DNA from: an uncultured Oscillospiraceae bacterium
Lineage (GTDB): Bacteria; Bacillota; Clostridia; Oscillospirales; QAMX01
DNA: 64,000 nucleotides
Reading direction: 5' to 3'
Assembly (NCBI GenBank): GCA_964448855.1
Contig: CAYUXI010000003.1
Coordinates: 32,976 to 96,975, forward strand
The notes under the pieces are model-generated. The model ran no database searches. It was given only the letters and a program-made list of their open reading frames with translations, and was not told where the DNA came from. Below, piece after piece: positions 219 to 13,716 of the stretch; the first letter of the stretch is position 1; each line of letters begins with the position of its first letter. The position numbers and the translations under genes were made by a program.

Positions 219-1640
219 TCATCGGGCATTCCGCTGCGTCCCATCCGGGGACACTTCAAATGACCGAATCAGCGCATAAAAGCTGCTTGCCGCAGCGTCC
301 AGCACTTCGTCCGGGGACAAATCCCCTTCCAGCATGGGCTCATAAACCGAACGGTCAAAAAATGCCTGAAACCGAACGTCAAATTCGTCGGCCGTCACCG
401 TGACGGCGGGCAAAATCCAATTCCGAATGACCCGTACCGCATCTGTGTCCAGATTGGCCTGACGGACAAAGGCGGCAACCCAGTCACCGTTCAACCGCTG
501 TGCCAGAGCGTTGAAAAGAATCACACTGTTGCGCAGCGTGATGTTATTGGCAGGGAACGCGTACCCGCAATACCCCGTAACCGGTGTTCGGCGCGCAGCG
601 GAACCGGTCGGAACCGGCATCAGAATAGCTGTGCCGGAGGCGGTCAATGCGGGTGTGTCGAGAATGCTGGCCGTATCCGTCCAGAGAAAGAGCAGCTTCC
701 CGTCGATAAACAGCTGCTTCGCTTCGGCCGGTGTGCCGGAAAACATCCCCGATGAGGCAAACGTCAATGTACGAAGCTCCGAAAGCGCCTTGACGGATGC
801 GGATTCCGTCAACTCACAGCTCCATGCACCATCCCGGCGCGAAACGATCGAACCGCCGAGCGACAGATAGGCAGACCGCGGTGACGTCAACGCCGTCCCA
901 TACGTTGTGGAGGAGAGAGCCGAAGCGGCGGCAGCCAAGCGCGTATATTCCGATAACGTCCATTTCCCGGTCTCCAAGAGATTGTAGAGGTTCCCAGTGC
1001 CCAGCCGATCCAAAAGCGTCTGATTGCAGAGTAGAACCTGCCCAAAAGCGGGAATATCGTATTCCGAGGCCAGCTGAACGGCCCATTGCTTCCCGTCATA
1101 ACGAGCCTGCGAGGAAATATCGGTCAGAAATCGTGTTTTATCGTTGCAATTCAGCCCGGCATTCAAAAGCACCGGGTCGTCCGCTGCATAAATGGCTTTG
1201 GAGCTGGCCAGCACCGGAATTTCAAAGCTGCGGATTCCGAGAACATCCGCAGAGCAGACCCCGGCAGCTGCATCCGCAATGCACTCGGAAAGCGACGGCG
1301 CATAGCTGATATCGATCACGGCGTTGTAGTCGGAGCAGAGCGCATTGTAAATCGCCAGAAGCTGGCGGTCAGATTCCGTGTCATCCGCGTTCGGTAGCAG
1401 CCGATCCGCCCATGGCACGCGAATCGACCAGACATAGCCGTTCAGATCAATCGCCGGAACGGTGGTTTCATCCGGCTGCTCCGGATCCAAAAACGATGTC
1501 GTAGAAGCGACAGAGAAGACAGACGTCGCAGCCGTGGTAGAAACGTGGGCATTCAACGGCGTCATGGAGCAGGCGGAGCATAGCGCCAAAAGCAAAGCCG
1601 TCAGCACGGCCAGAAACCGCCGAGCAGTCCCTGATGGCAT
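219..1640 (-). CDS. hypothetical secreted protein / putative lipoprotein (solute-binding-protein-like size)
   Basis: 473-aa ORF with an N-terminal signal-like segment containing Cys (RRFLAVLTALLLALCSACS). No catalytic motif recognised. Confidence 0.55.
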   Translation of the reverse strand: MPSGTARRFLAVLTALLLALCSACSMTPLNAHVSTTAATSVFSVASTTSFLDPEQPDETTVPAIDLNGYVWSIRVPWADRLLPNADDTESDRQLLAIYNALCSDYNAVIDISYAPSLSECIADAAAGVCSADVLGIRSFEIPVLASSKAIYAADDPVLLNAGLNCNDKTRFLTDISSQARYDGKQWAVQLASEYDIPAFGQVLLCNQTLLDRLGTGNLYNLLETGKWTLSEYTRLAAAASALSSTTYGTALTSPRSAYLSLGGSIVSRRDGAWSCELTESASVKALSELRTLTFASSGMFSGTPAEAKQLFIDGKLLFLWTDTASILDTPALTASGTAILMPVPTGSAARRTPVTGYCGYAFPANNITLRNSVILFNALAQRLNGDWVAAFVRQANLDTDAVRVIRNWILPAVTVTADEFDVRFQAFFDRSVYEPMLEGDLSPDEVLDAAASSFYALIRSFEVSPDGTQRNAR

Positions 1641-1748
1641 ATGATCCCCCTCCCATCAATCCAATCCAATATATTATACAGCAAAACGGCTGGAAATTCA
1701 ACAGGATTTTGTAAAAACGGATGGAATCTTTCACAATGTCGCCCCGCG

Positions 1749-2069
1749 CTACAGCGCAGAAAACCGCCTGCGCGTTTCTTCCTCCGCCGGGCAGAGGACA
1801 GCGGGCAGATCGACCAGAATGGCGTCCGTGCCGATCAGCCGAATCTGCGCCCAGTCAATGTGAATGCCTTCCTCGTGCCCGAAAAAACCGAAAAACCGTG
1901 GACGGCCGGGCAAGACCAGTTGACGAATCTGACCGCTGCCTGTGTCCATCTCCAGATCGCAAATCCGGCCAAAGATTTTCCCGTCCCGGACGTTGACCAC
2001 CTCTTTCAGCTGCAGCTCGCTCAGTCGAAACGGCTCGTGCAAAACAATCAGCTCCTTTTCCGACAACAT
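1749..2069 (-). CDS. YlmC/YmxH family sporulation protein (PRC-barrel)
   Basis: 106 aa. The segment LSELQLKEVVNVRDGKIFGRICDLEMDTGSGQIRQLVLPG matches the YlmC/YmxH PRC-barrel pattern as I know it. Confidence 0.8.
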   Translation of the reverse strand: MLSEKELIVLHEPFRLSELQLKEVVNVRDGKIFGRICDLEMDTGSGQIRQLVLPGRPRFFGFFGHEEGIHIDWAQIRLIGTDAILVDLPAVLCPAEEETRRRFSAL

Positions 2070-2130
2070 CGGCCAAATGGATGATATTCAGATTGTATGC
2101 GCGAAAAACGGCGATCTTGCCTGTCTGAAC

Positions 2131-3348
2131 CTATTGAATTCTGCCGTTTCCAGATTCTGTCAGAATATTGGCGTCGTCCCGCAGACAGACGACAAAATCC
2201 GGCTGAACTGCCTGAACGTAGTCCAAAATGGACAGGTCGGTATGGTGCCGAAGATCCAGACTTCTTGTTTCGTTGAAGCTCGTATACAGGAAGGTTTCCA
2301 CGGCGTTGGTATAGGAATCGCCAAAAATCAGCACGTTCGGCAGCTCCGGTCGATTCGTCTGCAAAACCGTTTCCGCCACATCTCCACCCATGTACGCCGC
2401 ATAGGTGACAGACGCTGCGTCGTTCTCCGGCAGCACAATCACGGGCGCATCTGTGGGAACGCCGTTGTCCATGCGCGTGTAGGGGATCGGCTGCTGCAAG
2501 GCGTAGGTCCAGAAATCATCCTGCAAACCCGTCAGATAGTAAATCGACCGGCTGCGCGAACCGCGAAACGTCGCCGATACCTTCGAAAAAACGAGATCCG
2601 AATCCGTCAAAACCGGCATCGTCCGCGTCCCGTCCAGCGCCTGAAGGCGCTCCATCATCGTCTGATAGACGAGAAAAGCGCCCTTCAGCGTGTAGTGATG
2701 GTCGGTTCGCATATAAAACTGCTGCATACCACCGGCCTGCTCAAAAACCGGCTGCATACGGAGACAGGCGATCTGCCGCTCCGCCAGTGCGCTTTCGAAC
2801 GCATTCAGCGCCAACGCACGCGACTCGGCACCGCTGTAGAGATCGGCCGGATACACATCGGCAAACGCCGTCATCTGCGTCGGAACGATCACATAGAGGA
2901 ATGTCCCGCCGTACGCGTGAACCGCGTCCTGCAAGGCCAGCAGACGCTCCGCCATGCGTTCCGCACGCGCTGACGTTTCCTCAGGTGCTTCGTCGGAAGG
3001 GGACAGCTCCGGCAGCAGACAATCGTCCGTCGAAATGATGCCGTTGACAATGGTGCGGGCGGCGACATGAAGCTCCAGCCAAGTGTGCCCCATCAGCATG
3101 ATATCGCGGCCGACAATGTGATCCTGAAAGCAGGTTTCACAGTCCGCAAAGAAATCGCCGGAGATCAGCGACTCCCAGGAAGCCTCAGGCAGCTCTGCCA
3201 AGGTGCGGTTTTCAATCTGTGATACCTTTGATTGTGGCAGACAGACGGTGATCACGGGGACGGCGAAGAGGATGGCGACAAAAACGGCGGCAAAGACGAG
3301 ACTGGCTCGGTGCCGCAGCGAATCGGAAGCGCGAGGAGATTCCTGCAT
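2131..3348 (-). CDS. DHHW-motif / AlgX-AlgJ-DltD-like partner protein of MBOAT O-acyltransferase
   Basis: ORF track gives 2131-3369. An AAGGAG ribosome-binding site lies 6 nt before the internal ATG at 3348, so that start is preferred. It has an N-terminal TM anchor and the RTDHHYT motif, and sits directly downstream of the MBOAT gene. Confidence 0.7.
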   Translation of the reverse strand: MQESPRASDSLRHRASLVFAAVFVAILFAVPVITVCLPQSKVSQIENRTLAELPEASWESLISGDFFADCETCFQDHIVGRDIMLMGHTWLELHVAARTIVNGIISTDDCLLPELSPSDEAPEETSARAERMAERLLALQDAVHAYGGTFLYVIVPTQMTAFADVYPADLYSGAESRALALNAFESALAERQIACLRMQPVFEQAGGMQQFYMRTDHHYTLKGAFLVYQTMMERLQALDGTRTMPVLTDSDLVFSKVSATFRGSRSRSIYYLTGLQDDFWTYALQQPIPYTRMDNGVPTDAPVIVLPENDAASVTYAAYMGGDVAETVLQTNRPELPNVLIFGDSYTNAVETFLYTSFNETRSLDLRHHTDLSILDYVQAVQPDFVVCLRDDANILTESGNGRIQ

Positions 3349-3375
3349 ACAAAACTCCTTCCGGATCATACCCGG

Positions 3376-4779
3376 CTAAAACCGGAAATAAATAAATGGA
3401 TTAAAGGACGAAACCGTGATCGATACGACGGAAAGACCGAAGATCATCAGCAGCAGCCCGTCGCACAGAATGGCCAGCCAGGTGTGTGCCTGATAGGCGG
3501 CGCGGAGCCGGCGAGGGAGCGGGAGACAAAAGAGCACCCCCAGCAAAAGCTCCAAATGGTACTGTCCAAACAGATACCGCAGCGAAGGCGCACCGGCTTC
3601 GCCAGCGTTGACACCGCACATCGCCTGCAAATAGGTGACGACCTGTGAGAGACTCCCGGCATTAAAAAGCACCCACCCAATCAGCACCGCCAGCAGCGTG
3701 TAGAGATGGCGGAAAACAGCGGGCATCCTGTCCAATAAACGCGCAAAAAACAGCTTTTCCAGAATCAGAAGAACGGCGTAGTACAGCCCCCACAGCACAA
3801 AATTCCAGGAAGCGCCGTGCCACAGCCCGGTGAGCAGCCAGACAATCAGCAAATTGAACAGCTGACGGACACGCCCACAGCGGTTGCCGCCGAGCGGGAT
3901 GTAAACATAGTCCCGAAACCAGGTGGAGAGGGAAATATGCCACCGCCGCCAGAAATCGGAAACCGAAACGGCCAGATAAGGGTGGTTGAAGTTTTCCGGG
4001 AAGTGAAACCCGAACATCTGCCCCAGACCGATGGCCATGTCCGAATATCCGGAAAAGTCAAAATAAATGTGCAAAGCATAGGCAACTGCACCGAACCAGG
4101 CGGCACCCGCGGAAACCGCCGACAAATCCGCACCGAATACGGCGGACGCGGCCTCACCGAGCGCATTGCCGATCAGCATTTTCCGCCCAAGCCCAATGAT
4201 CAGCCGCCGACAGCCTGCGACAAATTCCTCTGCGGTTTCCCGGCGGTGCAGAAGCTCATCCGCCACCGTCTCATACCGGACAATCGGCCCGGCCACCAGC
4301 TGCGGAAACAGCGCAATGTAGGTGGCGACGTTGAGAATGTTTTTCTGCGGTGCGCACCGAGCCCGATAGACATCCAACACATAGCTCATGCCCTGAAACG
4401 TGAAAAACGAAATGCCAATCGGCATGACAATGGCGGGCACGGTCAGTGAAAGTCCGAACAGCCGGTTCAGATTCGAAACGGCAAACCCGGCATATTTGAA
4501 GAAAACGAGCAGTCCGATGTTCAAAACGACTGCCAAAACGAGCAAGAGCTTCCGCACACGCTCTGAATACCGCGCAATGCCGAGCGCCAACAGCGTATTG
4601 GCAAGAATGGATGCAAGCATTACAAAAATGCCGACCGGCTCTCCATATAAATAAAAGAACAGCGAAAAAATCAGCAGCACACCATTCCGAAGCGAACGGC
4701 AGTGCTGCGGAATCAGAAAATAAGCCAGCAGGACAGCCGGCAAAAATGCAAATAGAAAGGTTAGACTGCTGAAAACCAT
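3376..4779 (-). CDS. MBOAT family O-acyltransferase (AlgI/DltB-like)
   Basis: Polytopic membrane protein with MBOAT hallmarks (WRRWHISLSTWFRDYVYIPLGGNR, GLWHGASW). ORF track starts at 4875, but AGGAGG plus ATG at 4779 (MVFSSLTFLFAF) is the likely start. Confidence 0.9.
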   Translation of the reverse strand: MVFSSLTFLFAFLPAVLLAYFLIPQHCRSLRNGVLLIFSLFFYLYGEPVGIFVMLASILANTLLALGIARYSERVRKLLLVLAVVLNIGLLVFFKYAGFAVSNLNRLFGLSLTVPAIVMPIGISFFTFQGMSYVLDVYRARCAPQKNILNVATYIALFPQLVAGPIVRYETVADELLHRRETAEEFVAGCRRLIIGLGRKMLIGNALGEAASAVFGADLSAVSAGAAWFGAVAYALHIYFDFSGYSDMAIGLGQMFGFHFPENFNHPYLAVSVSDFWRRWHISLSTWFRDYVYIPLGGNRCGRVRQLFNLLIVWLLTGLWHGASWNFVLWGLYYAVLLILEKLFFARLLDRMPAVFRHLYTLLAVLIGWVLFNAGSLSQVVTYLQAMCGVNAGEAGAPSLRYLFGQYHLELLLGVLFCLPLPRRLRAAYQAHTWLAILCDGLLLMIFGLSVVSITVSSFNPFIYFRF

Positions 4780-4932
4780 ACATCCTCCTGCGGTGAAAGG
4801 CCAATCGGGCACTTCCATCCCAAGGATAATTGTACCAGTCTTCCTCTGAAATGTCAACATATTTCCGGCGAACACCGCAGAAAATAGGAATGCGGTTCCA
4901 ACCGCACAGATCGGAAATTTGAGGGGAATTGT

Positions 4933-5103
4933 ATGAACAAATCGTCAAAACGTATCAAGAAACAACAAAAAATGCAGTCGCCGCCACTCGGCAAAACGTT
5001 GGAAATCAACGAGATCGACCACAAGGATTCGTCACAGACACCGCAGCGGACAGACCGCGCAGTCGAATCCTCGTATGAGTGGACACGCTTTACGCAGCTG
5101 TAA
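4933..5103 (+). CDS. small basic hypothetical protein (56 aa)
   Basis: GAGGGG ribosome-binding site 6 nt before the ATG. Sequence: MNKSSKRIKKQQKMQSPPLGKTLEINEIDHKDSSQTPQRTDRAVESSYEWTRFTQL. A 13-bp hairpin follows immediately. Below the ORF-track cutoff, and no homology recognised. Confidence 0.4.
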   Translation: MNKSSKRIKKQQKMQSPPLGKTLEINEIDHKDSSQTPQRTDRAVESSYEWTRFTQL

Positions 5104-5109
5104 CAGCCA

Positions 5110-5138
5110 GACAACCTCCGGAGCCTCCGGAGGTTGTC
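5110..5138 (+). terminator. stem-loop downstream of small ORF (possible terminator)
   Basis: Perfect 13-bp stem GACAACCTCCGGA/TCCGGAGGTTGTC with a 3-nt loop. The downstream T-tract is weak (CTCGTTTGTG). Confidence 0.45.
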
Positions 5139-5178
5139 CTCGTTTGTGCCAAAACATGAAAAAAACCACACGGAGCTC

Positions 5179-5207
5179 TTGACAAAAATGGCAAAACGTG
5201 CTATACT
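5179..5207 (+). promoter_or_regulatory. sigma-A-like promoter of the peptide-maturation operon
   Basis: TTGACA, a 17-nt spacer, then TATACT. It lies about 210 nt upstream of the ATG at 5415. Confidence 0.55.
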
Positions 5208-5228
5208 GATTTCAAACAAAGAAACAGA

Positions 5229-5240
5229 GCGAACGTTCGC
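5229..5240. promoter_or_regulatory. 12-bp perfect palindrome just downstream of the promoter (candidate operator)
   Basis: GCGAACGTTCGC is its own reverse complement. It sits about 15-25 nt after the predicted transcription start. Confidence 0.3.
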
Positions 5241-5264
5241 AATTCGAATGATTTCCATAAATAA

Positions 5265-5282
5265 ATATATATATATATATAT
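5265..5282. repeat. (AT)9 dinucleotide microsatellite in the operon leader
   Basis: Eighteen nt of uninterrupted ATATAT, read directly from the sequence. Confidence 0.9.
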
Positions 5283-5414
5283 TTACATGATTTGCATATA
5301 CCAGCGCGCAAAACCAGACGTAAAATCCTGAATTTTGAAAAAACTGCGGTTCGTGAGCGCGGCGACTGATTCGCCACACCGATTGCCCGCGTCTCCGCAA
5401 ATGAGGAGGACGTT

Positions 5415-6812
5415 ATGAATCGCGACGATATCTATTTTGGAACCATTGAACAGCAGGATTCGTTCTTTCTGTCCATCTGCTCGGATGCAAAACGCGCCTA
5501 TTCTTTTTTTCTTGCCGGTACGACACCGTATGGCAAAACGTGGGTTGCCAATAACCATGTCAATCTTCGTGTTGCCTTAGACGCATACCATCATTCGGAA
5601 AAACCGGAAATCAACCTGAGAATGGTTTCCTCTCTGATGGATTCGACCCGCCTGATCGATGCGGTGCGCATTCCGAAACATACAGATTTTCTCAATGACC
5701 CGACGACCGCAGCTGCTTTCCTACGTGAACAGCTGATGGCCGGCAAGGCCGTTGTCTGCGAGCTCGATATGTTTGAGCTGCCGCATAACGAATATACCGG
5801 AAAAGAACATGAGCCACACCGAACGCTGCTGTACGGCATGAATCCAGCAGATGATACGGTGTGTCTTTTTGCATTGGTCTCACAGAACCGGCACACATTT
5901 TCCAACTTTGAAATGCCACTGGAAAAGGTGAGCCGCGCCTTGACGGCGGAATGCTGCATGGACACATCAGATCTTCAGGTCTGTACCCTGAATAACCTCC
6001 CGGAGTATCGGCTGGATCCTGAACTAATCGCGACTCAGCTCCGCTATTTTCTCTCAGGCCAGGATATCAATGCCCAGCTGGAGCTGTTTTTTGACCGTGT
6101 CCCGGATGAAATCCTGAACCGCTCACTGCGCAATACCTATACCAGTGAACAGTTCGTTTTCGGCCTCGACTGCTATACCTGGCTGGCCAAACGACTGCGG
6201 AAAATGGATCATTATCTCCCACTGCTGACATCCCTGCAATCCATTCGGGAACACTTCCAGTGCGCACTCCTTCGCATTTCGGAACTGAACAATGCGGGCT
6301 TCCTGCCTGAGTCTGCGGCTGAGGAGCTGAACAATGGCTACTCTGAGCTGCTTGCTACCACGAAAATCATCCAGATGATGAACATCAAATACAAATTCCA
6401 GCTCGCTGAGCCGGGTCGCCATATGCCGGATCTCCTTTACCGCATCGCTGATCAGCTGGAACAGATCGCAGAAACAGAAAAGCACCTGACATTGCAATTG
6501 CTGGCCTGCCTGACAGAAGCATCTGACACAGCCCCCAATTGCACCCGGTCGAATGAGCGCCCCTGCAAAGCGTCGGTACCTGCTGCGGAGAAAACGATCC
6601 AGGCGGCCTATCAGGACTATGTCCCGTCCCGATACAACCTCCTTCAGCCGGTGGATGATCGCGTTGTTGCGGTCAATACCCTGTGTGGCTCCTTCCTCTC
6701 GCTGAATCCGGACGGAGAAGCCGCCACATGGCTCCGGAAAGGGCTGAAAAACGTCCCGAAAAATCCAATGGCTGATCGTCTCATTGAGCGGGGCTACTTC
6801 GTCCGGAGCTAG
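5415..6812 (+). CDS. unassigned ~400-aa domain fused to an rSAM/SPASM-maturase-type N-terminal (peptide-binding, RRE-like) segment; ends at in-frame TAG
   Basis: AGGAGG ribosome-binding site. The C-terminal 62 aa (PSRYNLLQPVDDRVVAVNTLCGSFLSLNPDGEAATWL...LIERGYFVRS) look like the usual start of SPASM peptide maturases. The same frame continues past TAG 6810-6812 into the rSAM core. Confidence 0.7.
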   Translation: MNRDDIYFGTIEQQDSFFLSICSDAKRAYSFFLAGTTPYGKTWVANNHVNLRVALDAYHHSEKPEINLRMVSSLMDSTRLIDAVRIPKHTDFLNDPTTAAAFLREQLMAGKAVVCELDMFELPHNEYTGKEHEPHRTLLYGMNPADDTVCLFALVSQNRHTFSNFEMPLEKVSRALTAECCMDTSDLQVCTLNNLPEYRLDPELIATQLRYFLSGQDINAQLELFFDRVPDEILNRSLRNTYTSEQFVFGLDCYTWLAKRLRKMDHYLPLLTSLQSIREHFQCALLRISELNNAGFLPESAAEELNNGYSELLATTKIIQMMNIKYKFQLAEPGRHMPDLLYRIADQLEQIAETEKHLTLQLLACLTEASDTAPNCTRSNERPCKASVPAAEKTIQAAYQDYVPSRYNLLQPVDDRVVAVNTLCGSFLSLNPDGEAATWLRKGLKNVPKNPMADRLIERGYFVRS

Positions 6813-6869
6813 GCCAATGAACAGGCTCTGGCCTGCGAACAATGGCAGAGCAGCAGCAACCAGACCAGC

Positions 6870-7955
6870 GTGCTTCGCCTAATTCTGCTGCCGACAGAAG
6901 GCTGCAATTTCCGCTGCCTCTATTGCTATGAAAACCACCAACCGACCAGAATGTCTGATGAAACGGTTTCTGACATCCTGACGTTTGTCCGACAGAATAT
7001 CCATAACTATGCGGCACTTCGCATCTCGTGGTTCGGCGGTGAGCCGCTGCTCTTCATGGACTTGATCGAACACCTCTCCACCGAACTGATCGATATCTGC
7101 CGCAGGGAACGCCGCCTGTATATTTCCGATATCACGACAAACGGTTACCTGCTGACGCCTGAGATCATGAAAAAGCTGCTGCGTCTGCGTGTTCTCTCGT
7201 ATCAGGTCACGGTGGATGGCTCTGCCGCCATTCATGATCGAAACAGACCGCTGGCCAACGGCGAAGGAACCTACGATACCATCACGAAAAATATTCGCAA
7301 AATCCGCCGGGAAGTCAAAACAGGAACGTTCCAATTCCTCATCCGTGTCAATTTCACACGGGAAAGTCTCGAAGAATTTGACAGCTTCTCTGCCGAATTG
7401 CAACGGCTGCTCGCCGGTGACAAACGGTTTCATTTGCTATTCCGCCCGGCCGGAGACTGGGGTGGCCAGATCGATGAGCGTATCCGCTGCTCCCTTGTGA
7501 CGGAAAAGAGCGAACAGGTGCTCGAACGGATGCTCCGGAAAAATTCAAACCTCGACCTCCGAGAACATCTCGATTTCCTGCTGCCCTGCGGCTACCTCTG
7601 CTATGCCTCATGCGCCTCAGCCTTCGTGATTGACCCGCAGGGAATCGTCCGCAAATGTACCTGTCACCTGGAATCCGATGCCAACTGCATCGGAAAGCTC
7701 GAAAACGGCAAACTCCTGCTGGATCGGTATGCGGCAGCTCAGTGGAGCCTGGCATCGGTCGCTCCGTCAGAAACCTGCAAACAGTGCGTGATGTTCCCGG
7801 TCTGCGGAATGTCGGCGTGCCCGGCCAATCGAATTGTTCTGAAAAAACCAGAGGATGATTCGGGCTATGAAAACTGCCCGCTGGAATCGAAACTCCTCCC
7901 GCAGCTGATCGCGGCGATGGAACGGAAACATGATTTCGAAAGGATGGACGGATAA
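6870..7955 (+). CDS. radical SAM / SPASM-domain peptide-modifying enzyme core
   Basis: CNFRCLYCY (CxxxCxxC) lies 11 aa after the GTG start given by the track. The C-terminus has SPASM-type Cys clusters (CYASCASAFVIDPQGIVRKCTC, CKQCVMFPVCGMSACP). There is no ribosome-binding site before 6870, and the ORF is in the same frame as 5415-6812. Confidence 0.85.
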   Translation: MLRLILLPTEGCNFRCLYCYENHQPTRMSDETVSDILTFVRQNIHNYAALRISWFGGEPLLFMDLIEHLSTELIDICRRERRLYISDITTNGYLLTPEIMKKLLRLRVLSYQVTVDGSAAIHDRNRPLANGEGTYDTITKNIRKIRREVKTGTFQFLIRVNFTRESLEEFDSFSAELQRLLAGDKRFHLLFRPAGDWGGQIDERIRCSLVTEKSEQVLERMLRKNSNLDLREHLDFLLPCGYLCYASCASAFVIDPQGIVRKCTCHLESDANCIGKLENGKLLLDRYAAAQWSLASVAPSETCKQCVMFPVCGMSACPANRIVLKKPEDDSGYENCPLESKLLPQLIAAMERKHDFERMDG

Positions 7956-8014
7956 CCATGAAGAAAGAAGTTCTGGATGGCATTCTGAATGCGTTGGAAT
8001 AGGCGGTTTCAGAC

Positions 8015-8443
8015 GTGGATGATATCGTCAAAACGGTTCGCAAGGGCAAAGATGTTGATCTCCGCAACGTGATCATTGACTCCTTTCAGTTTATTTCTTT
8101 TATAATGGACGTGGAGGATCAGCTGAACATCGAAGTTCCGGACGAACTGCTGGTATATGATCATTTTGCCTCTCTACTTGGCTTTGCGGAGCTGATGAGC
8201 ACCGTCAAAGAAGAGTACGAAGAAGAGTACGAAGAAGAGTACGAAGAAGACGAAGAAGAGTACGACGAAGACGAAGAAGACGAAGAAGAAGACGAAGAAG
8301 ACGAAAAAGACGAAGAGGAAGACGAAGAGGAAGACGAAGAGGAAGACGAAGAGGAAGACGACGAAGAAGACGAAGAGGAAGAAACAGAGCTGAAAGTGCT
8401 TGATCGAACCATGCGTGGTCCGTGGTCAGGCTTTTTAAGATAA
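8015..8443 (+). CDS. acyl-carrier-protein-related protein with polyacidic C-terminal tail (probable true start ATG 7958, interrupted by TAG 8000-8002)
   Basis: ACP-like helix-2 region NVIIDSFQFISFIMDVEDQLNIEVPDELL with the Ser of a DS motif. The in-frame upstream stretch MKKEVLDGILNALE-TAG-AVSD reads like ACP helix 1. The tail is 58 residues of Asp/Glu apart from 4 Tyr and 1 Lys. Confidence 0.7.
   Translation: MDDIVKTVRKGKDVDLRNVIIDSFQFISFIMDVEDQLNIEVPDELLVYDHFASLLGFAELMSTVKEEYEEEYEEEYEEDEEEYDEDEEDEEEDEEDEKDEEEDEEEDEEEDEEEDDEEDEEEETELKVLDRTMRGPWSGFLR
8207..8383 (+). repeat. GAA/GAG/GAC triplet-repeat region encoding the polyacidic tail
   Basis: Tandem GAAGAGTAC x3, then reiterated GAAGAGGAAGAC / GAAGAAGAC units. 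The region is coding. Confidence 0.85.
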
Positions 8444-8461
8444 ATGAAGGGAGGCGAAATC

Positions 8462-8608
8462 ATGAAGCAGCTGAAAAAACTGGTCAAGCCGTCCAAAAAG
8501 GCGGCAAACGCCATCGTGACACTGTATGTCAATGAAAACCAGTGTGGCGATCCGTGTGGTGCCAGCAAATGCACCAATGAATCACAGTGCGGCAAACGTT
8601 GCACCTGA
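8462..8608 (+). CDS. Cys-rich precursor-peptide candidate (48 aa)
   Basis: GGGAGG ribosome-binding site (8449-8454) 7 nt before the ATG. Sequence: MKQLKKLVKPSKKAANAIVTLYVNENQCGDPCGASKCTNESQCGKRCT, ending in TGA. It has a Lys-rich leader-like half and a core with five Cys. It sits between the ACP-like and protease genes and is absent from the ORF track (<60 aa). Confidence 0.75.
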   Translation: MKQLKKLVKPSKKAANAIVTLYVNENQCGDPCGASKCTNESQCGKRCT

Positions 8609-8641
8609 TGCCGCAACAGAAGCGTTGAAACGGGGTCAGCT

Positions 8642-10408
8642 ATGAATGTTCGAATTTGGATTGTGGACAGCGGCGGAGCGCCGGGCGCAGAAAACAGCCG
8701 GGTCTTCCGCAACGGTTCACTGTACCCGGATGAAGTAGGGGATCGCTTCGGCCATGGAACCGCAGTCAGCGGGATCATTGGCTCCGGCGCCCCAACAGCA
8801 GAACTCACCCATGTTCGCCTGGTGAATCAGGAAGCGCAAGCCACGGCCGATGAGCTGACGGCACTGCTGGTATACATGGATGCCCATGCAGATGTCGATC
8901 TGATTCATATGAGCCTTGGTGTCACGGGCGGTGACCTGCAAGCCCTGCATACGGCCTGTGTGCGCCTTGCGGAAAAGGGTGTCATTCTGGTTGCTGCATT
9001 TGATAACGGCGGTGCCATCTCCTATCCGGCTGCATTCCCGGAGGTCATTGGCGTGAGTTCCAACCCGGCCTGCAGGCGCAAAGATGCCTTCCGCTTCTGT
9101 GATGACAGCGTGTTGAATCTGCTTGCACACGGAAATGTGCAGCGCGTCCGTTGGACGGAACCGAAATACCTGCTGATCACCGGCAACAGCTTTGCCGTAG
9201 CACACGTCACTGCGTGGGCGGCCAACGAAATGTCCAGGTCGAATCATCGCCTCACCCGAGCGGACCTTCTGGAACGCTTCCGGAAAGCCGCACGGGATGT
9301 GGTATCCTTCGGCTCGGAACCGCTTCCGCAAAAGCTCCCGTTTGAAATTCGTCGGGCTGTGCTGTTCCCGTTCAACAAAGAAATGCACGCACTGATCCGC
9401 TTTCGTGATCTGCTGCCATTTGAAATCGTCGGGGTCTATGAGGGGCGTTATGCCGCCACCATAGGCACTTCGGTATCGCAGCTTGTCGGTACATCAGGCG
9501 CAGAAGATCTGATGATCCGAAAGCTCAGCGACTGCGATTTCGACAGCTTTGACACGGCGGTCATCGGTCACTGCGGTGAGCTGGCCAGACTGGTGAATCC
9601 ATCGCTCATGACGGCCTGGATCCGCCGCCTGGCGGCACACGGAAAGAACATCTATTCCTTTGATGATCTGTCCGACCTGCTGCCGGGTTTCTCCTATGAA
9701 CGCTGGTTTTATCCGCATATTAAGCGGTCTGATCTCCCGCCGGATCGCTGTGGGAAGCTGTTCCGAATTCAAACGCCGGTGCTCGGCGTTTTTGGAACCA
9801 GCTCCAAACAGGGGAAATTTACGTTGCAGTTGGCACTTCGAAAATGGCTGATAGCAGAAGGCTATCGCGTCGGGCAAATCGGAACGGAACCAACCGCTCT
9901 ACTGTTCGGCATGGAACGCTGCTATCCCATGGGATATGCCTCGTCGGTCGAAGTGTCCGGCACGGATGCCGTGCGTTGGTTGAATCATGCGATGAACGAT
10001 ATCTCAGAAGACAAAGATATTCTGATCGTTGGCTCACAATCAGGTACCATTCCGTTCAGCTGCGACAATACCGCGTATTTCTGCTTCCCTCAGCAGGAAT
10101 TCCTGCTGGGCACGCAGCCGGATGCCATCCTCCTGTGCATCAATCCATATGATGAACCGGATTATATCGGCAAAACCATCCAAATGCTGGAAGCAGCAGA
10201 CGCAACAGTCATTGGATTGGCTGTCTTTCCAATGACCTTTCAATCTGAACTCAATCTGCTTGGAAAACGCAGATTGACACAAGAAGAGGAGACGCACCTG
10301 CTGCAACTTTTACGACAGCAGTTTGATCTTCCGGCCTGGATTGTTCGGGATCCGGCCGATGTCGAAGAAATTGCAGACTGTGTCATCCACTTTTTTACAA
10401 CCTGTTAA
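8642..10408 (+). CDS. S8 (subtilisin-like) serine peptidase fused to a DUF1611/DgcN-like C-terminal domain
   Basis: Asp/His/Ser triad contexts IWIVDSGG, GHGTAVSG and GNSFAVAHV, plus AAFDNGG. The C-terminal half shows VFGTSSKQGKFTLQL, ILIVGSQSGTIPF and LLGTQPDAILLCINPYD, which parallel the DUF1611 motifs (GTDxxxGK, EGQG, GxxPDaxxL) as I recall them. Confidence 0.8.
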   Translation: MNVRIWIVDSGGAPGAENSRVFRNGSLYPDEVGDRFGHGTAVSGIIGSGAPTAELTHVRLVNQEAQATADELTALLVYMDAHADVDLIHMSLGVTGGDLQALHTACVRLAEKGVILVAAFDNGGAISYPAAFPEVIGVSSNPACRRKDAFRFCDDSVLNLLAHGNVQRVRWTEPKYLLITGNSFAVAHVTAWAANEMSRSNHRLTRADLLERFRKAARDVVSFGSEPLPQKLPFEIRRAVLFPFNKEMHALIRFRDLLPFEIVGVYEGRYAATIGTSVSQLVGTSGAEDLMIRKLSDCDFDSFDTAVIGHCGELARLVNPSLMTAWIRRLAAHGKNIYSFDDLSDLLPGFSYERWFYPHIKRSDLPPDRCGKLFRIQTPVLGVFGTSSKQGKFTLQLALRKWLIAEGYRVGQIGTEPTALLFGMERCYPMGYASSVEVSGTDAVRWLNHAMNDISEDKDILIVGSQSGTIPFSCDNTAYFCFPQQEFLLGTQPDAILLCINPYDEPDYIGKTIQMLEAADATVIGLAVFPMTFQSELNLLGKRRLTQEEETHLLQLLRQQFDLPAWIVRDPADVEEIADCVIHFFTTC

Positions 10409-10421
10409 TGGAGGGATCATC

Positions 10422-11102
10422 ATGAAAAGGAAACCGTTCAGCGGTATCAGCGAAACCTTGTCCTTTATGTTCTCCTTTATCTGGAAGCATCAAAAATCCT
10501 TTTTCCTCTGGAATACGGTTCAAAATCTGGTCGTTCCGGGGACAAACCTCGCAGAGGTCTGGCTGTCCAAGCTGGTGATGGACGAAATTTTTTCCGAAAC
10601 CCGGACAGTTGAAAGGATTGCATTCTACGTTGGATTGATGCTGCTCTGCTACCTGGTGCGCAATTGCGTCCGTGAGCTGACCTATACGTTGATTAGTAAC
10701 AATCGAACCATCCTCTACCACCGGTTCCGCCAGATGATGATTAGCACCGTCTGTGAAGCGGACTATGAGCTGTTGGAAACGCCGGTCACGCACGAACTGA
10801 AAGAAAATGCGGAGCAGGTGGCATATGGGGACGGCGCCGGCTTCTGTGCCATTGTTCAGGAGCTGTTTTCTCTGAGTGGCAACTTCATCACCCTGGCCGG
10901 TATCACAGCGATTATTTTCACGTTGAACCCGCTGTTTGTCCTGTTGCTGCTGGCGCTGATTTTTGTAAACTCCATGGTTCGCAATCAATGCAACAAGATT
11001 GAATATTCGCTGCGAAAAAATCGAATTCCGATTGAACGGAAATCAAACTATCTGTCGGATATTTCCGAAGGCTTTGAATACGGAAAAGAGGTTCGCCTCT
11101 GA
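10422..11102 (+). CDS. ABC exporter, N-terminal transmembrane part (ends at in-frame TGA 11100-11102)
   Basis: GGAGGG ribosome-binding site plus ATG 10422 (MKRKPFSGISETLSFMF). TM helices typical of type-I ABC exporter membrane domains. The frame continues after the TGA. Confidence 0.75.
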   Translation: MKRKPFSGISETLSFMFSFIWKHQKSFFLWNTVQNLVVPGTNLAEVWLSKLVMDEIFSETRTVERIAFYVGLMLLCYLVRNCVRELTYTLISNNRTILYHRFRQMMISTVCEADYELLETPVTHELKENAEQVAYGDGAGFCAIVQELFSLSGNFITLAGITAIIFTLNPLFVLLLLALIFVNSMVRNQCNKIEYSLRKNRIPIERKSNYLSDISEGFEYGKEVRL

Positions 11103-11156
11103 AACCTGAAAAATTTCATCATTGAGAGACTGGAAAAGCATGATGCGGTAGCTGAA

Positions 11157-12239
11157 ATGTTTTACCGGAGGAGCACCCGGGTCAGCGACCGTGCCAGCTA
11201 TCTCTCCTATATCACATCACTGATTCAGCAGGGCGCCTCCTATTCCTACCTGGTCTTTCTGGTCTTCACGGAAGGCATGACCATCGGTTCGTTCACCATG
11301 TACATGAGCGCCCTCAACAAGTTCAACGGCGTCTTCAATTCGTTCTTCAGCGCCTACACCGAGATGGCAAACTCGAAGCTCTATTTCCAGGATCTACAGA
11401 ACTTCCTGAACCTGAAACGCCGCGCTGATGACTCGGGCTCGGAAAAACCACAGTTGAAACAGGACACCGTCATTTCCTTCTCGCACGTCTCCTTCCATTA
11501 CCCCGGAACCGACCGCGACGTCCTCCACGATGTCACCCTCGATTTCAAGATCGGCGAAAAGGTTGCGCTCGTAGGTGCCAATGGCGCGGGCAAGTCCACC
11601 TTTATCAAGCTGCTTGTGCGTCTGTATGACCCGACGGAGGGTGAAATCCTGCTGAACGGCAAAAACATCAAAGAGTATGACTACAACGAGTACCTGAACC
11701 TGTTTGCACCGGTATTCCAGGATTTCAAACTGTTTGCATTCACACTGCGCGAAAATCTGGCGCTGACCGGCGAATACGATGATGAGCGCATGGAGAAAAT
11801 CGTCCGTCAGGTCGGACTGGATTCGCGCTTTGCGGAACACGGTCTGGACACCATCCTGTACAAAGAGTACGATGAAAGCGGGACGGAGCTGTCCGGCGGC
11901 GAAGCACAGCGCCTGGCGATTGCCCGTGCGCTGTACCGCAATAGCCCGATGGTTGTTCTGGATGAGCCCACCGCCGCACTCGACCCGCTGGCGGAATATA
12001 ATATCTACCAGATGTTTGGCGATCTGGTCAACGGCAAGACGGCCTTCTTTGTCACACATCGTCTGGGTTCGGTTCGTTTCTGCGACGACATTCTCGTCTT
12101 TGACAACGGACAGGTGGTTGCCCGCGGTACACACAGCGAACTCATGAAGAAGAATGACATTTATGCGGAAATGTTCACCAAACAGTCCGATATGTACAAG
12201 GAACTTGAATCCCAGCAGCCGGCAGAAGCGGCGCTGTAA
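11157..12239 (+). CDS. ABC exporter, C-terminal TMD remainder plus ATP-binding domain (coding sense resumes at 11103, same frame)
   Basis: Walker A GANGAGKST, signature LSGGEAQRLAIARAL and Walker B VVLDEPTAALD. There is no ribosome-binding site before ATG 11157. Confidence 0.85.
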   Translation: MFYRRSTRVSDRASYLSYITSLIQQGASYSYLVFLVFTEGMTIGSFTMYMSALNKFNGVFNSFFSAYTEMANSKLYFQDLQNFLNLKRRADDSGSEKPQLKQDTVISFSHVSFHYPGTDRDVLHDVTLDFKIGEKVALVGANGAGKSTFIKLLVRLYDPTEGEILLNGKNIKEYDYNEYLNLFAPVFQDFKLFAFTLRENLALTGEYDDERMEKIVRQVGLDSRFAEHGLDTILYKEYDESGTELSGGEAQRLAIARALYRNSPMVVLDEPTAALDPLAEYNIYQMFGDLVNGKTAFFVTHRLGSVRFCDDILVFDNGQVVARGTHSELMKKNDIYAEMFTKQSDMYKELESQQPAEAAL

Positions 12240-12296: not shown

Positions 12297-13439
12297 TCAT
12301 CGAACGAGCATCATGATTGCCGTCAGAACGGCGAGAAAGCCGAAGTTGAACGCGGAAAACAGGACAAGGTATCGCCGCGTCTGTCCTGGATTGTGCGCCG
12401 TATATTCGCGGAACGTAATCAGGCTGGCCAGCGACGCAATCAGCGTTCCTGTTCCGCCGATGTTCACGCCGATCAGCAGCTCACGGTAATTGCCCGTGAA
12501 TTGCGATAGCAGAATCGCCGAGGGAACGTTGCTGATGCACTGACAGGAGAGTACGCTGAAAAGCAGGGTATCCTTTTCCAAAAGCGATGCAAACAGCGAT
12601 TGAACGGCGGGAATCCGCGCCATATTGCCGGAAAAGATGAAAAATGCGGCAAAGGTCAGGAGCAGGGGATAATCGACATCCTTCAGGGCTTTTGGATCCG
12701 CAAAAAGCAGCACCAGCGGAATCACAATCAGTCCAATCCAGTAGGGGATGAAGCGGAAAACGATCACAATCGACAGGACAAACAGACAGAGGTACAGCAC
12801 CGTTCGCCGGGCGGGGAGCGCGGAACGCTTGGCTGGAATCTGCATGGCCTCCGGCTTGACAAAAATCCGGCAGCAGAGCGTGATCAGTGCAATGGAAATC
12901 ACAAACGGCAACAGCATGATCATTGTGAATTCGCCGGTCGGAATTGCAAACTTGCCGTACAGATAAAGGTTCTGCGGATTGCCAAACGGTGTCAGCATCC
13001 CGCCGAGGTTTGCAGCGATGTTCTGCATGATAAACGTAAACGCCATGTATTTCTGCATCCCCGAACAGGACAGTACGAAATAGCCGAGCGGCAGGAAGGT
13101 CAACAACGCCATATCGTTGGCAATCAGCATGGAACCGATGAACGTGATGTAGACGAGCGCCAGAATGCAGAACCGGGCGTTTCGGAATCGCCGGACAATC
13201 TGCTCCGCGAGCACATAGAAGAACCGGATGTTTTTCAAAGCGCAGACAACCGCCAGTACACAGAACAGACAGGTCAGCGTCTTCCAGTCAAAATACGTCA
13301 GATAGGTGCGGTCAGGTGGCACGATACAGGACGTGAGCGCAGCGGCCAGAATCGCAATGCAGAGAACCACGTTTTTTCGAACCCAGTGCAGAAGGCGCGT
13401 CGGGAACATGGAAACCGGGTGCAGGGGCGGGTGCGTCAT
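12297..13439 (-). CDS. anion/citrate-transporter-type permease (ArsB/NhaD-CitMHS-like superfamily)
   Basis: Polytopic membrane protein; MLTPFGNPQNLYLY and VNIGGTGTLIASLA resemble this permease superfamily. The ORF track extends to 13631 by reading through tRNA-Thr. ATG 13439 (MTHPPLH) with an AAAGGAAG ribosome-binding site is the plausible start. Confidence 0.7.
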   Translation of the reverse strand: MTHPPLHPVSMFPTRLLHWVRKNVVLCIAILAAALTSCIVPPDRTYLTYFDWKTLTCLFCVLAVVCALKNIRFFYVLAEQIVRRFRNARFCILALVYITFIGSMLIANDMALLTFLPLGYFVLSCSGMQKYMAFTFIMQNIAANLGGMLTPFGNPQNLYLYGKFAIPTGEFTMIMLLPFVISIALITLCCRIFVKPEAMQIPAKRSALPARRTVLYLCLFVLSIVIVFRFIPYWIGLIVIPLVLLFADPKALKDVDYPLLLTFAAFFIFSGNMARIPAVQSLFASLLEKDTLLFSVLSCQCISNVPSAILLSQFTGNYRELLIGVNIGGTGTLIASLASLITFREYTAHNPGQTRRYLVLFSAFNFGFLAVLTAIMMLVR

Positions 13440-13500
13440 AAAAAGACTTCCTTTGTATTCGAAGATCGCCGAACAAAAAGCGGAACGGCACTTGACCATG

Positions 13501-13533
13501 AAAAAAGCACTTGCAATTGCAAGTGCTTTTTTC
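13501..13533. terminator. rho-independent terminator after the tRNA pair
   Basis: AAAAAAGCACTTGCAATTGCAAGTGCTTTTTT: a perfect 9-bp stem flanked by A- and T-runs. Confidence 0.85.
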
Positions 13534-13534
13534 A

Positions 13535-13610
<76 letters not shown>

Positions 13611-13638
13611 AATTACCCCGCGCTTCTGCACGGAGCGA

Positions 13639-13716
13639 TGGCGACCCGGAAGGGGCTCGAACCCTCGACCTCTAGCGTGACAGACTAGCGTTCTAAACCA
13701 ACTGAACTACCGGGCC
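13639..13716 (-). tRNA. tRNA-Asp (anticodon GUC)
   Basis: Minus strand: GGCCCGGTAGTTCAGTTGGTTTAGAACGCTAGTCTGTCACGCTAGAGGTCGAGGGTTCGAGCCCCTTCCGGGTCGCCA. Anticodon loop CTGTCAC, T-loop GGTTCGAGCC, encoded CCA end. Confidence 0.9.

Follow-up and report, generated by a model that had tools for sequence, protein, structure and literature searches.

A cysteine-rich peptide gene of a widespread, unnamed family: a likely RiPP precursor, probably orphaned in a decaying radical-SAM/SPASM cluster of an uncultured Oscillospiraceae bacterium

In gut bacteria, a growing number of antimicrobial and signalling molecules come from small Cys-rich peptides that radical-SAM enzymes produce. In ranthipeptides a Cys sulfur is joined to a non-alpha carbon of the acceptor residue, and in sactipeptides to its alpha carbon. 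CteA/CteB (SCIFF/thermocellin) and PapA/PapB (freyrasin) are ranthipeptide systems in which the maturases are radical-SAM/SPASM thioether synthases; SCIFF peptides have six cysteines in forty-five residues, and the precursor ScfA is matured by ScfB. QhpC is the cross-linked gamma subunit of quinohemoprotein amine dehydrogenase, with QhpD as radical-SAM thioether synthase and QhpE as a cytoplasmic subtilisin-like leader peptidase. In butirosin biosynthesis, BtrH is an ACP-dependent acyltransferase and BtrI is its carrier protein.

The nearest described system to the locus considered here is the CLI_3235/CcpM cassette, which has been described in silico only, in Roseburia intestinalis (PMC4573289) and in Paenibacillus polymyxa SacP23 (PMC10731318). 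It consists of a TIGR04065 precursor, a TIGR04066 protein, the radical-SAM enzyme CcpM (TIGR04068), an ACP-related protein (TIGR04069), a subtilase and an ABC transporter (PMC4573289; PMC10731318). A search of the literature found no experimental work on this type of cassette.

The locus compared here lies in a window of 64,000 nucleotides (the whole stretch of DNA that was analysed) from an uncultured Oscillospiraceae bacterium. Its cassette comprises a radical-SAM/SPASM maturase, an ACP-like protein, a precursor, a subtilisin-DUF1611 fusion, one or more ABC exporters and a BtrH_N-like protein. Comparison of sequences makes it highly probable that the small open reading frame (ORF) in this cassette is a Cys-rich RiPP precursor of a widespread, unnamed family that is matured by radical-SAM/SPASM enzymes, and that in this strain has probably been orphaned. 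A first-pass annotation had proposed the ORF as a leader/core precursor for the neighbouring radical-SAM/SPASM enzyme, and the comparative evidence given below supports that proposal.

The precursor gene and its cassette

The precursor ORF comprises 48 codons on the plus strand (8462-8608), from ATG 8462 to TGA 8606-8608, and its translation is MKQLKKLVKPSKKAANAIVTLYVNENQCGDPCGASKCTNESQCGKRCT. As the first-pass annotation had pointed out, a Shine-Dalgarno sequence, GGGAGG (8449-8454, plus strand), stands exactly 7 nt (8455-8461) upstream of the ATG; a purine-rich counterpart is retained in the related loci L012, L017 and L018. The ORF was also correctly placed within a 198-nt gap between the stop of the ACP-like gene at 8443 and the start of the peptidase gene at 8642, and it begins 18 nt past the former and ends 33 nt ahead of the latter. 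The alternative start that had been raised, ATG 8444, does exist in the window and is missing from the syntenic locus L017, so 8462 is favoured as the start.

The leader region (codons 1-25, 8462..8536, plus strand, MKQLKKLVKPSKKAANAIVTLYVNE) carries the motifs KKLxKP and V-x-L-Y-x-x-E of the family described below. The earlier account of its charge holds, with six Lys residues (K2, 5, 6, 9, 12 and 13) and E25 as the first acidic residue. The core (codons 26-48 and the TGA stop, 8537..8608, plus strand, NQCGDPCGASKCTNESQCGKRCT) contains five Cys, in the spacing x3, x4, x5, x3 already reported for this peptide. A second copy of the precursor was not found in the window by profile search of its six-frame segments. 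The ORF had been called unannotated, which is true of the ORF track available to that reader and untrue of public gene callers: these predict exactly this 48-aa product on at least 35 public contigs (NCBI, ENA, Logan), where it has never been named.

About 200 nt ahead of the first cluster gene there is a promoter-like site with a TG extension (TTGACA-17 nt-TATACT, 5179..5207, plus strand; 11/12 matches in a consensus scan), and a terminator-like hairpin (5110-5138) precedes it immediately. By its consensus match this site is predicted to be the likely operon promoter. The maturase gene follows in two parts on the plus strand, whose frame is continuous across a TAG codon at 6810-6812. The 5' part (5415..6812) encodes a BtrH_N-like domain (Pfam BtrH_N, 30.4 bits) and an N-terminal domain that serves leader binding in homologous SPASM peptide maturases. 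The 3' part (6813..7955; Radical_SAM, 72.5 bits) encodes the radical-SAM core with CNFRCLYC and the SPASM cysteines, giving a CxxxCxxC motif together with the SPASM auxiliary-cluster set.

An intact 846-aa maturase fusion is present in L011-13, L017, L018 and L024, and its residues 407-822 align to positions 1-414 of the TIGR04463 profile. This profile is the best NCBIfam match of the maturase, the other leading matches being Clo7bot, CefB and PapB, and the curated models that score highest are all of Cys-rich-peptide or thioether maturases. The TIGR04463 cut-off (525 bits) is missed both by the window fragment (175 bits) and by the intact 846-aa orthologue (200 bits). Maturases of the wider family were likewise rejected as TIGR04463 members, five of them from other genera scoring 174-206 against 525 bits. 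The nearest solved structure is that of CteB (5wgg, E=1.3e-16).

The ACP-like gene (7958..8443, plus strand; PP-binding 21.2 bits, NF005480 ACP 28 bits) starts at ATG 7958, and its residual ORF starts at GTG 8015. The encoded protein has the Asp-Ser motif IIDSFQF, the Ser of which is kept in 56/56 aligned homologues, and a net charge of about -57; a tandem array (8208-8382) encodes its poly-Glu/Asp tail. Among close strains its length ranges from 125 to 172 aa.

The gene downstream of the precursor (8642..10408, plus strand) is intact and encodes a 588-aa fusion of an S8 protease and DUF1611, both matched in Pfam. The S8 domain has the triad D9/H38/S183 and is without a signal peptide or prodomain, the DUF1611 module is complete with the P-loop GTSSKQGKFT, and both triad and P-loop are invariant in 22 homologues. 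The NCBIfam matches of the fusion are QhpE (120.6 bits, cut-off 165) and TIGR04066 (82.8 bits, cut-off 200). An AF2 model (pLDDT 86), which Foldseek matches to 2g0t/2obn and to subtilisins, confirms the subtilisin-like and DUF1611 folds at the level of predicted structure, and the protein is presumed to combine a leader peptidase with a second activity.

The ABC exporter gene (10422..12239, plus strand; ABC_tran, 116.6 bits) encodes 605 aa when intact, without a C39 peptidase domain. ABC exporter genes occur in 70 of the 80 loci that are described below, and a BtrH_N-like gene occurs in 43 of the 80, being fused to the maturase in the window's lineage. The BtrH_N-like domain could be a putative transferase or equally a papain-like peptidase. 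No curated family reached its cut-off for any component of the cassette. No dehydrogenase subunit genes were found near the cluster, and Rfam and tRNA scans of the window returned two tRNAs only, both outside the cluster.

Conservation in close relatives and in a wider family

The first-pass annotation had named lack of conservation in syntenic loci as evidence that would count against the ORF, and the ORF was found in all syntenic loci of close relatives. Three close variants (P0001-P0003) are 96, 81 and 77% identical, and the gene order around them is constant. The leader is identical across the three, with synonymous changes only; its codons show 0 nonsynonymous versus 3-6 synonymous differences in L012, L017 and L018. 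Core codons have 7-10 nonsynonymous changes, and every Cys, Gly, Pro, Thr and Asn is retained, some of the Cys codons via TGT/TGC changes, which leaves the variants with a common skeleton, CG.PCG...CTN...CG..CT. Judged from these codons, both the leader and the Cys codons of the precursor are under purifying selection. The combination expected of a RiPP precursor is thereby present: the leader is conserved, and the core varies while retaining its modifiable residues, with all five Cys kept. A search with the single peptide against 5.8 billion proteins returned only three near-identical clusters.

Distant homologues were sought with a family profile made of 40 small-ORF peptides from genera other than the window's. 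Against 1680 six-frame segments of the window (hmmsearch), the ORF was the sole match (E=7.2e-9, 32.7 bits), the next-best segment having E=1.6, and the window peptide also aligns in the family alignments A2 and A3. The profile was further run on 80 loci, each from a species-level genome and retrieved through the S8-DUF1611 gene, and 54 of these had at least one match at E<=0.01. The 54 loci hold 70 matches, with two loci entered twice at alternative starts, and 40 of the 70 had gone into building the profile itself. All 70 lie on the cassette strand, and most are within 250 nt 3' of the ACP-like gene. A search for similar small ORFs beside homologous cassettes, which had been recommended as a check, has thus found the same slot filled in 54 of 80 distant loci. 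The loci are spread over Oscillospiraceae, Lachnospiraceae, Paenibacillus, Tumebacillus and Treponema, among others. No match at E<=0.01 was obtained in 26 of the 80 loci, possibly owing to truncated loci, non-ATG starts or divergent leaders, and the Latescibacterota loci had no peptide matching the family profile.

The family consensus is a leader of the form MKKLxKP...V-x-L-Y-x-x-E, followed by a Cys/Gly/Asn-rich core, just 3' of the ACP-like gene. The window ORF shows both features by which members are recognised, a match to the profile and a same-strand slot 3' of the ACP-like gene. Family leaders contain 28% Lys and 0.2% Cys, and the region after the Tyr contains 15.8% Cys, 14.7% Gly and 13.6% Asn. 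Core length is hypervariable, from about 5 residues to over 40, and so is core sequence, even among near-identical strains.

A profile search of protein libraries added 12 unnamed small proteins, and an exhaustive search of 1.84 billion representatives gave 25 matches at E<=0.001. Searches of such large libraries have little statistical power for short peptides, many of which also escape gene calling. At E<=10 the window peptide matches none of the Pfam and NCBIfam peptide models, and 33 family peptides compared with the same two collections gave one weak TIGR04065 match only (the L100 peptide). The window ORF anchors a precursor family that curated models do not recognise. For annotation, the leader profile KKLxKP...VxLYxxE finds precursors that often fall below ORF size cut-offs.

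Proposed maturation, alternative readings and cluster decay

In the proposed pathway, the N-terminal domain of the radical-SAM/SPASM enzyme would bind the basic leader, and SAM and Fe-S clusters would be used to cross-link core cysteines to nearby residues. Thioether bridges would be the likeliest product by analogy with CteB and PapB, the nearest characterised relatives; since no curated family reaches its cut-off, this chemistry is extrapolated from relatives at about 100-200 bits. The cytoplasmic subtilisin-like domain would cut off the leader in or close to the conserved LY-x-x-E junction, cleavage following either Tyr22 or Glu25 being the two candidates, and the peptidase-less ABC transporter would export the product. 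From these comparisons we infer that the ORF is translated, where the precursor is cleaved and that the product is exported, as well as any part played by the ACP-like, DUF1611 and BtrH_N-like components.

Conservation of the ACP-like Asp-Ser motif, of the DUF1611 P-loop and of the BtrH_N-like protein indicates an additional, carrier-protein-dependent step. We suggest tentatively, as a possibility rather than an expectation, that this trio modifies a radical-SAM-cross-linked ribosomal peptide in a carrier-protein-dependent manner; for example, a carrier-bound group could be moved onto the N-terminus newly exposed by the fused protease. If true, this would be RiPP/carrier-protein hybrid chemistry, new for sactipeptide or ranthipeptide-type products. 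It would occur in over a thousand protein clusters, with gut Clostridia contributing many of them, the S8-DUF1611 marker enzyme being found in >1100 protein clusters in public data. With these three components consistently in its cassette, the family provides a well-defined and testable entry to chemistry that may be new.

The alternative that survives best, itself unlikely, is a real precursor on which the radical-SAM enzyme performs chemistry other than thioether formation, such as C-C or C-O cross-linking, epimerisation or methylation, the cysteines being disulfides, metal ligands or carrier-protein-dependent attachment points. SPASM enzymes catalyse diverse reactions, the curated thioether-maturase models are all below cut-off here (best 175-205 versus 525 bits), and to our knowledge the conserved ACP-like/DUF1611/BtrH_N-like trio does not occur in characterised sactipeptide or ranthipeptide clusters. 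However, the top curated models (TIGR04463, Clo7bot, CefB, PapB, CcpM and SCIFF) are those of Cys-rich-peptide or thioether maturases, the closest solved structure belongs to the thioether-forming CteB, and Cys is the sole core residue without variation.

It is considerably less probable that the peptide is a sacrificial scaffold or substrate for a small molecule or cofactor, comparable to PQQ, mycofactocin or the QhpC subunit. This would fit with QhpE as the best curated S8 match (120.6 bits) and with the conservation of an ACP-like carrier and a BtrH_N-like putative transferase in the cassette, but a core that is hypervariable in length and sequence is the opposite of a cofactor precursor, and dedicated ABC exporters in 70/80 loci and the lack of dehydrogenase subunit genes nearby also argue against it. 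A chance or untranslated frame in the spacer, or a mere cis-regulatory element, is very improbable: the ORF is short and its translation is predicted, but a strong, optimally spaced Shine-Dalgarno sequence precedes it, its leader substitutions are all synonymous, its Cys codons are preserved, it matches the profile at E=7e-9 and homologous ORFs stand in the same slot of 54/80 distant loci. That the peptide belongs to the SCIFF family is scarcely credible, as its comparable length, MK start, Cys-rich C-terminus and SPASM partner are set against five Cys instead of six, the lack of any NCBIfam/Pfam peptide match at E<=10, a maturase score of 74.1 bits versus the TIGR03974 cut-off of 425, and SCIFF loci that, as far as we know, have no ACP-like or S8-DUF1611 genes.

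A Cys-rich precursor matured by a radical-SAM/SPASM enzyme is thus the preferred reading for the family, and the cluster of this particular strain carries three nonsense mutations. The first-pass annotation was right that the maturase is broken, but the ACP-like and ABC exporter genes are also interrupted by in-frame stops. The maturase stop (TAG 6810-6812) is CAA (Gln) at the same codon in the sister lineage, the ACP-like stop (TAG 8000-8002) is TGG in relatives, and the exporter stop (TGA 11100-11102) corresponds to TGG in relatives as well as in some contigs with an identical peptide. All three genes are intact in the sister lineage, whose locus L012 has the 846-aa maturase at 1393-3933, the ACP-like gene at 3936-4454 and the S8-DUF1611 gene at 4653-6419; samples with this intact lineage include SRR22923218 and SRR17221322. 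Stop-codon recoding was considered and rejected: the orthologous codons are plain CAA/TGG, the exporter stop is polymorphic among identical-peptide contigs, and all three stop codons terminate long ORFs across the window. The first possible restart of the maturase is GTG 6870, which is without a Shine-Dalgarno sequence; a split maturase restarting there, with the stop falling between the leader-binding and catalytic parts, is conceivable in a strict sense.

Given nonsense mutations in three partner genes, the cluster is probably in decay and its intact precursor orphaned; this strain is unlikely to make a mature product. The outcome for this strain is therefore more modest than for the family: on the evidence of the gene sequences the precursor is probably a remnant in a cluster that is being lost, would go unmatured, and may be non-functional here with its partner genes broken.

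Comparison with known systems

The earlier likening of the peptide to SCIFF, ranthipeptide and sactipeptide precursors stands insofar as these are related in kind, but the resemblance to SCIFF is generic only. The accompanying remark that the sequence is distinct from SCIFF is borne out, the peptide lacking a model match at E<=10 and the maturase scoring 74 bits versus a cut-off of 425; SCIFF membership (ScfA TIGR03973, ScfB TIGR03974) was rejected for both peptide and maturase. CteA and PapA resemble the window peptide as small precursors with a Cys-rich C-terminal core, and CteB and PapB resemble its maturase in having CxxxCxxC and SPASM clusters, the PapB model giving 122-127 bits. In contrast, the CteA and PapA precursors have no sequence similarity to the window peptide, and the window scores are far under the cut-offs for PapB (340) and ScfB (425). 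We know of no ACP-like, DUF1611 or BtrH_N-like genes in the CteA/CteB and PapA/PapB clusters.

The QhpC/QhpD/QhpE system is alike in that a cytoplasmic S8 protease lacking a prodomain is partnered by a SPASM enzyme whose substrate is a Cys-containing peptide. It differs in that the window S8 domain is under the QhpE cut-off (120.6 versus 165 bits) and that the window cassette type has no dehydrogenase subunits, a hypervariable core and exporters. BtrH/BtrI offer a parallel in the form of a BtrH_N-type domain alongside an ACP-like protein with an Asp-Ser attachment motif, whereas only the N-terminal domain matches, weakly (25-31 bits), and the context is that of a ribosomal peptide and not of an aminoglycoside.

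The CLI_3235/CcpM cassette differs from the window in several respects. The window scores 93-100 versus 500 bits for TIGR04068 and 82.8 versus 200 bits for TIGR04066, its peptide does not match TIGR04065 (cut-off 26 bits), and its ACP-like protein has no match to TIGR04069 at E<=0.01, this model being absent among the best 25 of 38 matches at E<=10. Furthermore, the protease and DUF1611 module of the window are fused in one protein of about 590 aa, its maturase is nearer to TIGR04463, Clo7bot and CefB than to CcpM, and the BtrH_N-like protein is an extra, regular component of this cassette type. The shared parts are a radical-SAM/SPASM enzyme, an ACP-related protein, a TIGR04066/DUF1611-type protein, a subtilisin-like protease and an ABC exporter, together with a small Cys-rich precursor that has a Lys-rich MKKL... 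leader. The DUF1611 module of the window shows homology to TIGR04066 (E=2e-23), and the leader of one of 33 family members, the L100 (Paenibacillus) peptide, aligns to TIGR04065 at 19.5 bits versus the cut-off of 26. The five functions that make up the CLI_3235/CcpM cassette all recur in the window, as they do in the majority of the 80 loci.

The precursor gene and its surroundings

The ORF at 8462-8608 (+) is, on the evidence of sequence comparison, a genuine precursor gene. Its branch of Cys-rich peptides, modified by radical-SAM enzymes, is widespread and uncurated. Its 48 codons run from ATG 8462 to TGA 8606-8608 and encode MKQLKKLVKPSKKAANAIVTLYVNENQCGDPCGASKCTNESQCGKRCT. The ORF lies within the 198 nt that separate the ACP-like stop (8443) from the peptidase start (8642), with a candidate Shine-Dalgarno sequence (GGGAGG, 8449-8454) 7 nt from the ATG; the first acidic residue is E25 and the five Cys are spaced x3, x4, x5, x3. 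The first-pass annotation had described these features and the Lys count of the leader correctly. It also favoured the start at 8462 over an ATG at 8444, and since the latter is absent from a close syntenic relative (L017), 8462 is the conserved start. Its description of the ORF as unannotated holds for the ORF track then available, but public gene callers have called the exact 48-aa product on at least 35 contigs (NCBI, ENA, Logan), where it was never named.

A protein search with the peptide as query returned three clusters, each of 48 aa and 96, 81 and 77% identical. The leader MKQLKKLVKPSKKAASAIVTLYVNE is common to all three, and the cores vary around a retained skeleton, CG.PCG...CTN...CG..CT. 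Gene order on their contigs is that of the window, from which they differ in having an intact BtrH_N-radical-SAM fusion (845-846 aa), ACP-like gene (125-172 aa) and ABC exporter (605 aa). Among these lineages the leader codons show 0 nonsynonymous and 3-6 synonymous differences; the core codons show 7-10 nonsynonymous changes, with every Cys codon kept, in some cases via a TGT/TGC switch. This is the signature expected of a translated leader/core precursor, and it supports the reading originally made from the sequence alone.

The gene lies in a tightly packed string on the + strand (5415-12239). A BtrH_N-like ORF (5415-6812) is continued in frame, past TAG 6810, by a radical-SAM/SPASM ORF that stops at 7955. 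Next come the ACP-like gene with its poly-Glu/Asp tail (7958-8443), the precursor, a 588-aa protein in which a subtilisin-like S8 protease is fused to a DUF1611/TIGR04066-like module (S8-DUF1611; 8642-10408) and an ABC exporter (10422-12239). A promoter-like site, TTGACA-17-TATACT (5179-5207, +), is located 5' of the string and 3' of a terminator-like hairpin; the untranslated stretch of ~200 nt from this site to the first cluster gene contains a (TA)n run (5265-5285).

A 56-aa ORF (4933-5103, +; MNKSSKRIKKQQKMQSPPLGKTLEINEIDHKDSS...) with a strong terminator-like hairpin 3' of it (5110-5138) separates the cluster from an MBOAT gene; gene callers report it on every close syntenic contig, and it is without a family match on record. 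The cluster is adjoined, in close relatives too, by a divergent pair on the - strand encoding a DltB-like MBOAT (3376-4875) and an AlgX/DHHW-type SGNH protein (2131-3369). DltB-type enzymes normally partner a small carrier protein. The pair was not detected near the 79 distant cassettes, to which it is probably unrelated. The cluster is flanked by a CitMHS-type transporter gene, and just past this gene are tRNA-Thr(GGT) and tRNA-Asp(GTC) (13535-13716, -); a long + strand ORF overlapping them (12600-13688) was rejected as spurious.

The peptide family and its proposed maturation

The S8-DUF1611 fusion has >1100 homologous clusters of ~600 aa each, and an alignment of 22 homologues was used to retrieve 80 loci from species-level genomes, including Oscillospiraceae, Lachnospiraceae/Acetatifactor, Paenibacillus, Tumebacillus, Treponema, Latescibacterota and others. 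The locus at 96% identity is from an uncultured Oscillospiraceae MAG, which gives the placement of the source organism. Annotation with phmmer revealed a recurrent cassette of a radical-SAM enzyme, an ACP-like protein, small ORF(s), one or two ABC transporters and S8-DUF1611. Small ORFs directly 3' of the ACP-like gene share a leader, M-K-K-L-x-K-P...V-x-L-Y-x-x-E, followed by a short Cys-rich core. When a profile of 40 such peptides, all taken from outside the window's lineage, was compared with 1680 six-frame window segments, the sole significant match was the window ORF (E=7.2e-9; next best 1.6). The first-pass annotation had proposed looking for similar small ORFs beside homologous radical-SAM genes. 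At E<=0.01 the profile gave 70 matches in 54 of the 80 loci (two loci appear twice because of alternative starts), and every match is on the cassette strand. Added matches from Treponema carry an LYVNE junction identical to that of the window peptide; the Latescibacterota loci gave no match to the profile.

Family leaders contain 28% Lys and 0.2% Cys, and the region C-terminal to the conserved Tyr contains 15.8% Cys, 14.7% Gly and 13.6% Asn. Three and four positions ahead of Cys the commonest residue is Asn, an enrichment that would be compatible with Asn-Cys thioethers. Many cassettes (L026, L033, L036, L040, L041, L053, L079, L081, L086) hold two or three tandem precursor genes with near-identical leaders and different cores; the three copies in L079 end in ...CGLEW or ...CGLDW. 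The precursor family is large, unnamed and chemically unexplored.

The best curated match of the radical-SAM part is TIGR04463 (175 bits), followed by Clo7bot, CefB, FlmE/OhkG, PapB, CcpM and SCIFF; all scores are far under the cut-offs, and all these models describe Cys-rich-peptide or thioether maturases. Among solved structures, the one nearest to the intact orthologue is that of CteB, a thioether synthase (5wgg; E=1.3e-16).

The Ser of the Asp-Ser motif is kept in 56/56 aligned ACP-like sequences, and carrier function has therefore probably been preserved. In the window the protein is extremely acidic (net charge ~-57, against ~+4.5 for the leader) because a tandem GAA/GAG/GAC array (8208-8382) encodes its poly-Glu/Asp tail. 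The array differs in length among strains, with products of 125-172 aa in very close strains, and homologues of ~80-90 aa in other genera are without the tail. Hypothetically, it is conceivable that the tail binds the Lys-rich leader electrostatically, as a leader-carrier contact.

None of the 22 aligned homologues deviates in the S8 catalytic triad or the DUF1611 P-loop. An AlphaFold model (pLDDT 86) places an N-terminal subtilisin fold before a complete DUF1611 fold, which matches 2g0t and 2obn (TM-score 0.65-0.70 when normalised by target length). Clustering of all ORFs in the loci identified a BtrH_N-like protein of ~340 aa in 43 of 80, often encoded directly 3' of S8-DUF1611 (e.g., L025 8795-9823; L040 8783-9787; L045 8862-9902); the lineage of the window instead has it as an N-terminal extension of the maturase. 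Since BtrH is an acyltransferase that depends on an ACP, the co-occurrence of BtrH_N-like and ACP-like proteins is suggestive, but the Pfam matches are weak (25-31 bits).

In the best-supported model of an intact cassette, the maturase would recognise the leader and cross-link core Cys, most likely as thioethers by analogy with CteB, PapB and QhpD. The prodomain-less, cytoplasmic S8 domain would then cut off the leader at the LY-x-x-E junction or close to it. The conserved Glu of this junction might either determine cleavage or accept a cross-link. Export of the product would fall to the ABC transporter, which has no peptidase domain of its own. The presence of ACP-like, DUF1611 and BtrH_N-like components points to a further step of unspecified chemistry, and cassette composition raises a mechanistic question.

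Probable decay of the cluster in the window

Three window genes have in-frame stops where the sister lineage (~93% DNA identity), which keeps the cassette intact, has sense codons: maturase codon 466 (TAG at 6810; CAA), ACP-like codon 15 (TAG at 8000-8002; TGG, Trp, in L011-13, L017, L018 and L024) and exporter codon 227 (TGA at 11100; TGG). The ACP-like stop is a third nonsense mutation, absent from the first-pass annotation; the true start of this gene is ATG 7958, and the ORF listed from GTG 8015 is a remnant only. Sequencing error or recoding was ruled out as the source, since the stop alleles recur in independent metagenome assemblies (L001-L005, L009) and the exporter stop is polymorphic among contigs with an identical peptide, which indicates natural mutations.

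The maturase TAG cuts the catalytic core off from the BtrH_N-like and presumed leader-binding part. After this TAG the first in-frame start is GTG 6870, which is without a ribosome-binding site, and the next ATG lies past the CxxxCxxC motif. The precursor and S8-DUF1611 genes are intact. Most simply, the cluster is decaying in the window, where the precursor is probably a remnant of a cluster being lost and this copy is likely inactive.

Relation to described systems

In neither the window nor five distant cassettes did any component reach a curated cut-off. Curated-model searches of the peptide and the maturase excluded SCIFF membership, in keeping with the distinction drawn at first pass. 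A literature search found no paper linking DUF1611 to peptide maturation. The general class of the window precursor is familiar, and a sister system was predicted long ago. Of the systems described so far, the CLI_3235/CcpM cassette (TIGR04065-04069 with a subtilase and an ABC transporter) comes nearest; in the literature searched it is described in silico only (PMC4573289; PMC10731318). The parts list is identical, and one family member has a leader with a weak alignment to TIGR04065 (19.5 bits; cut-off 26). However, the protease and DUF1611 module are fused in the window cassette, and its maturase lies on another branch.
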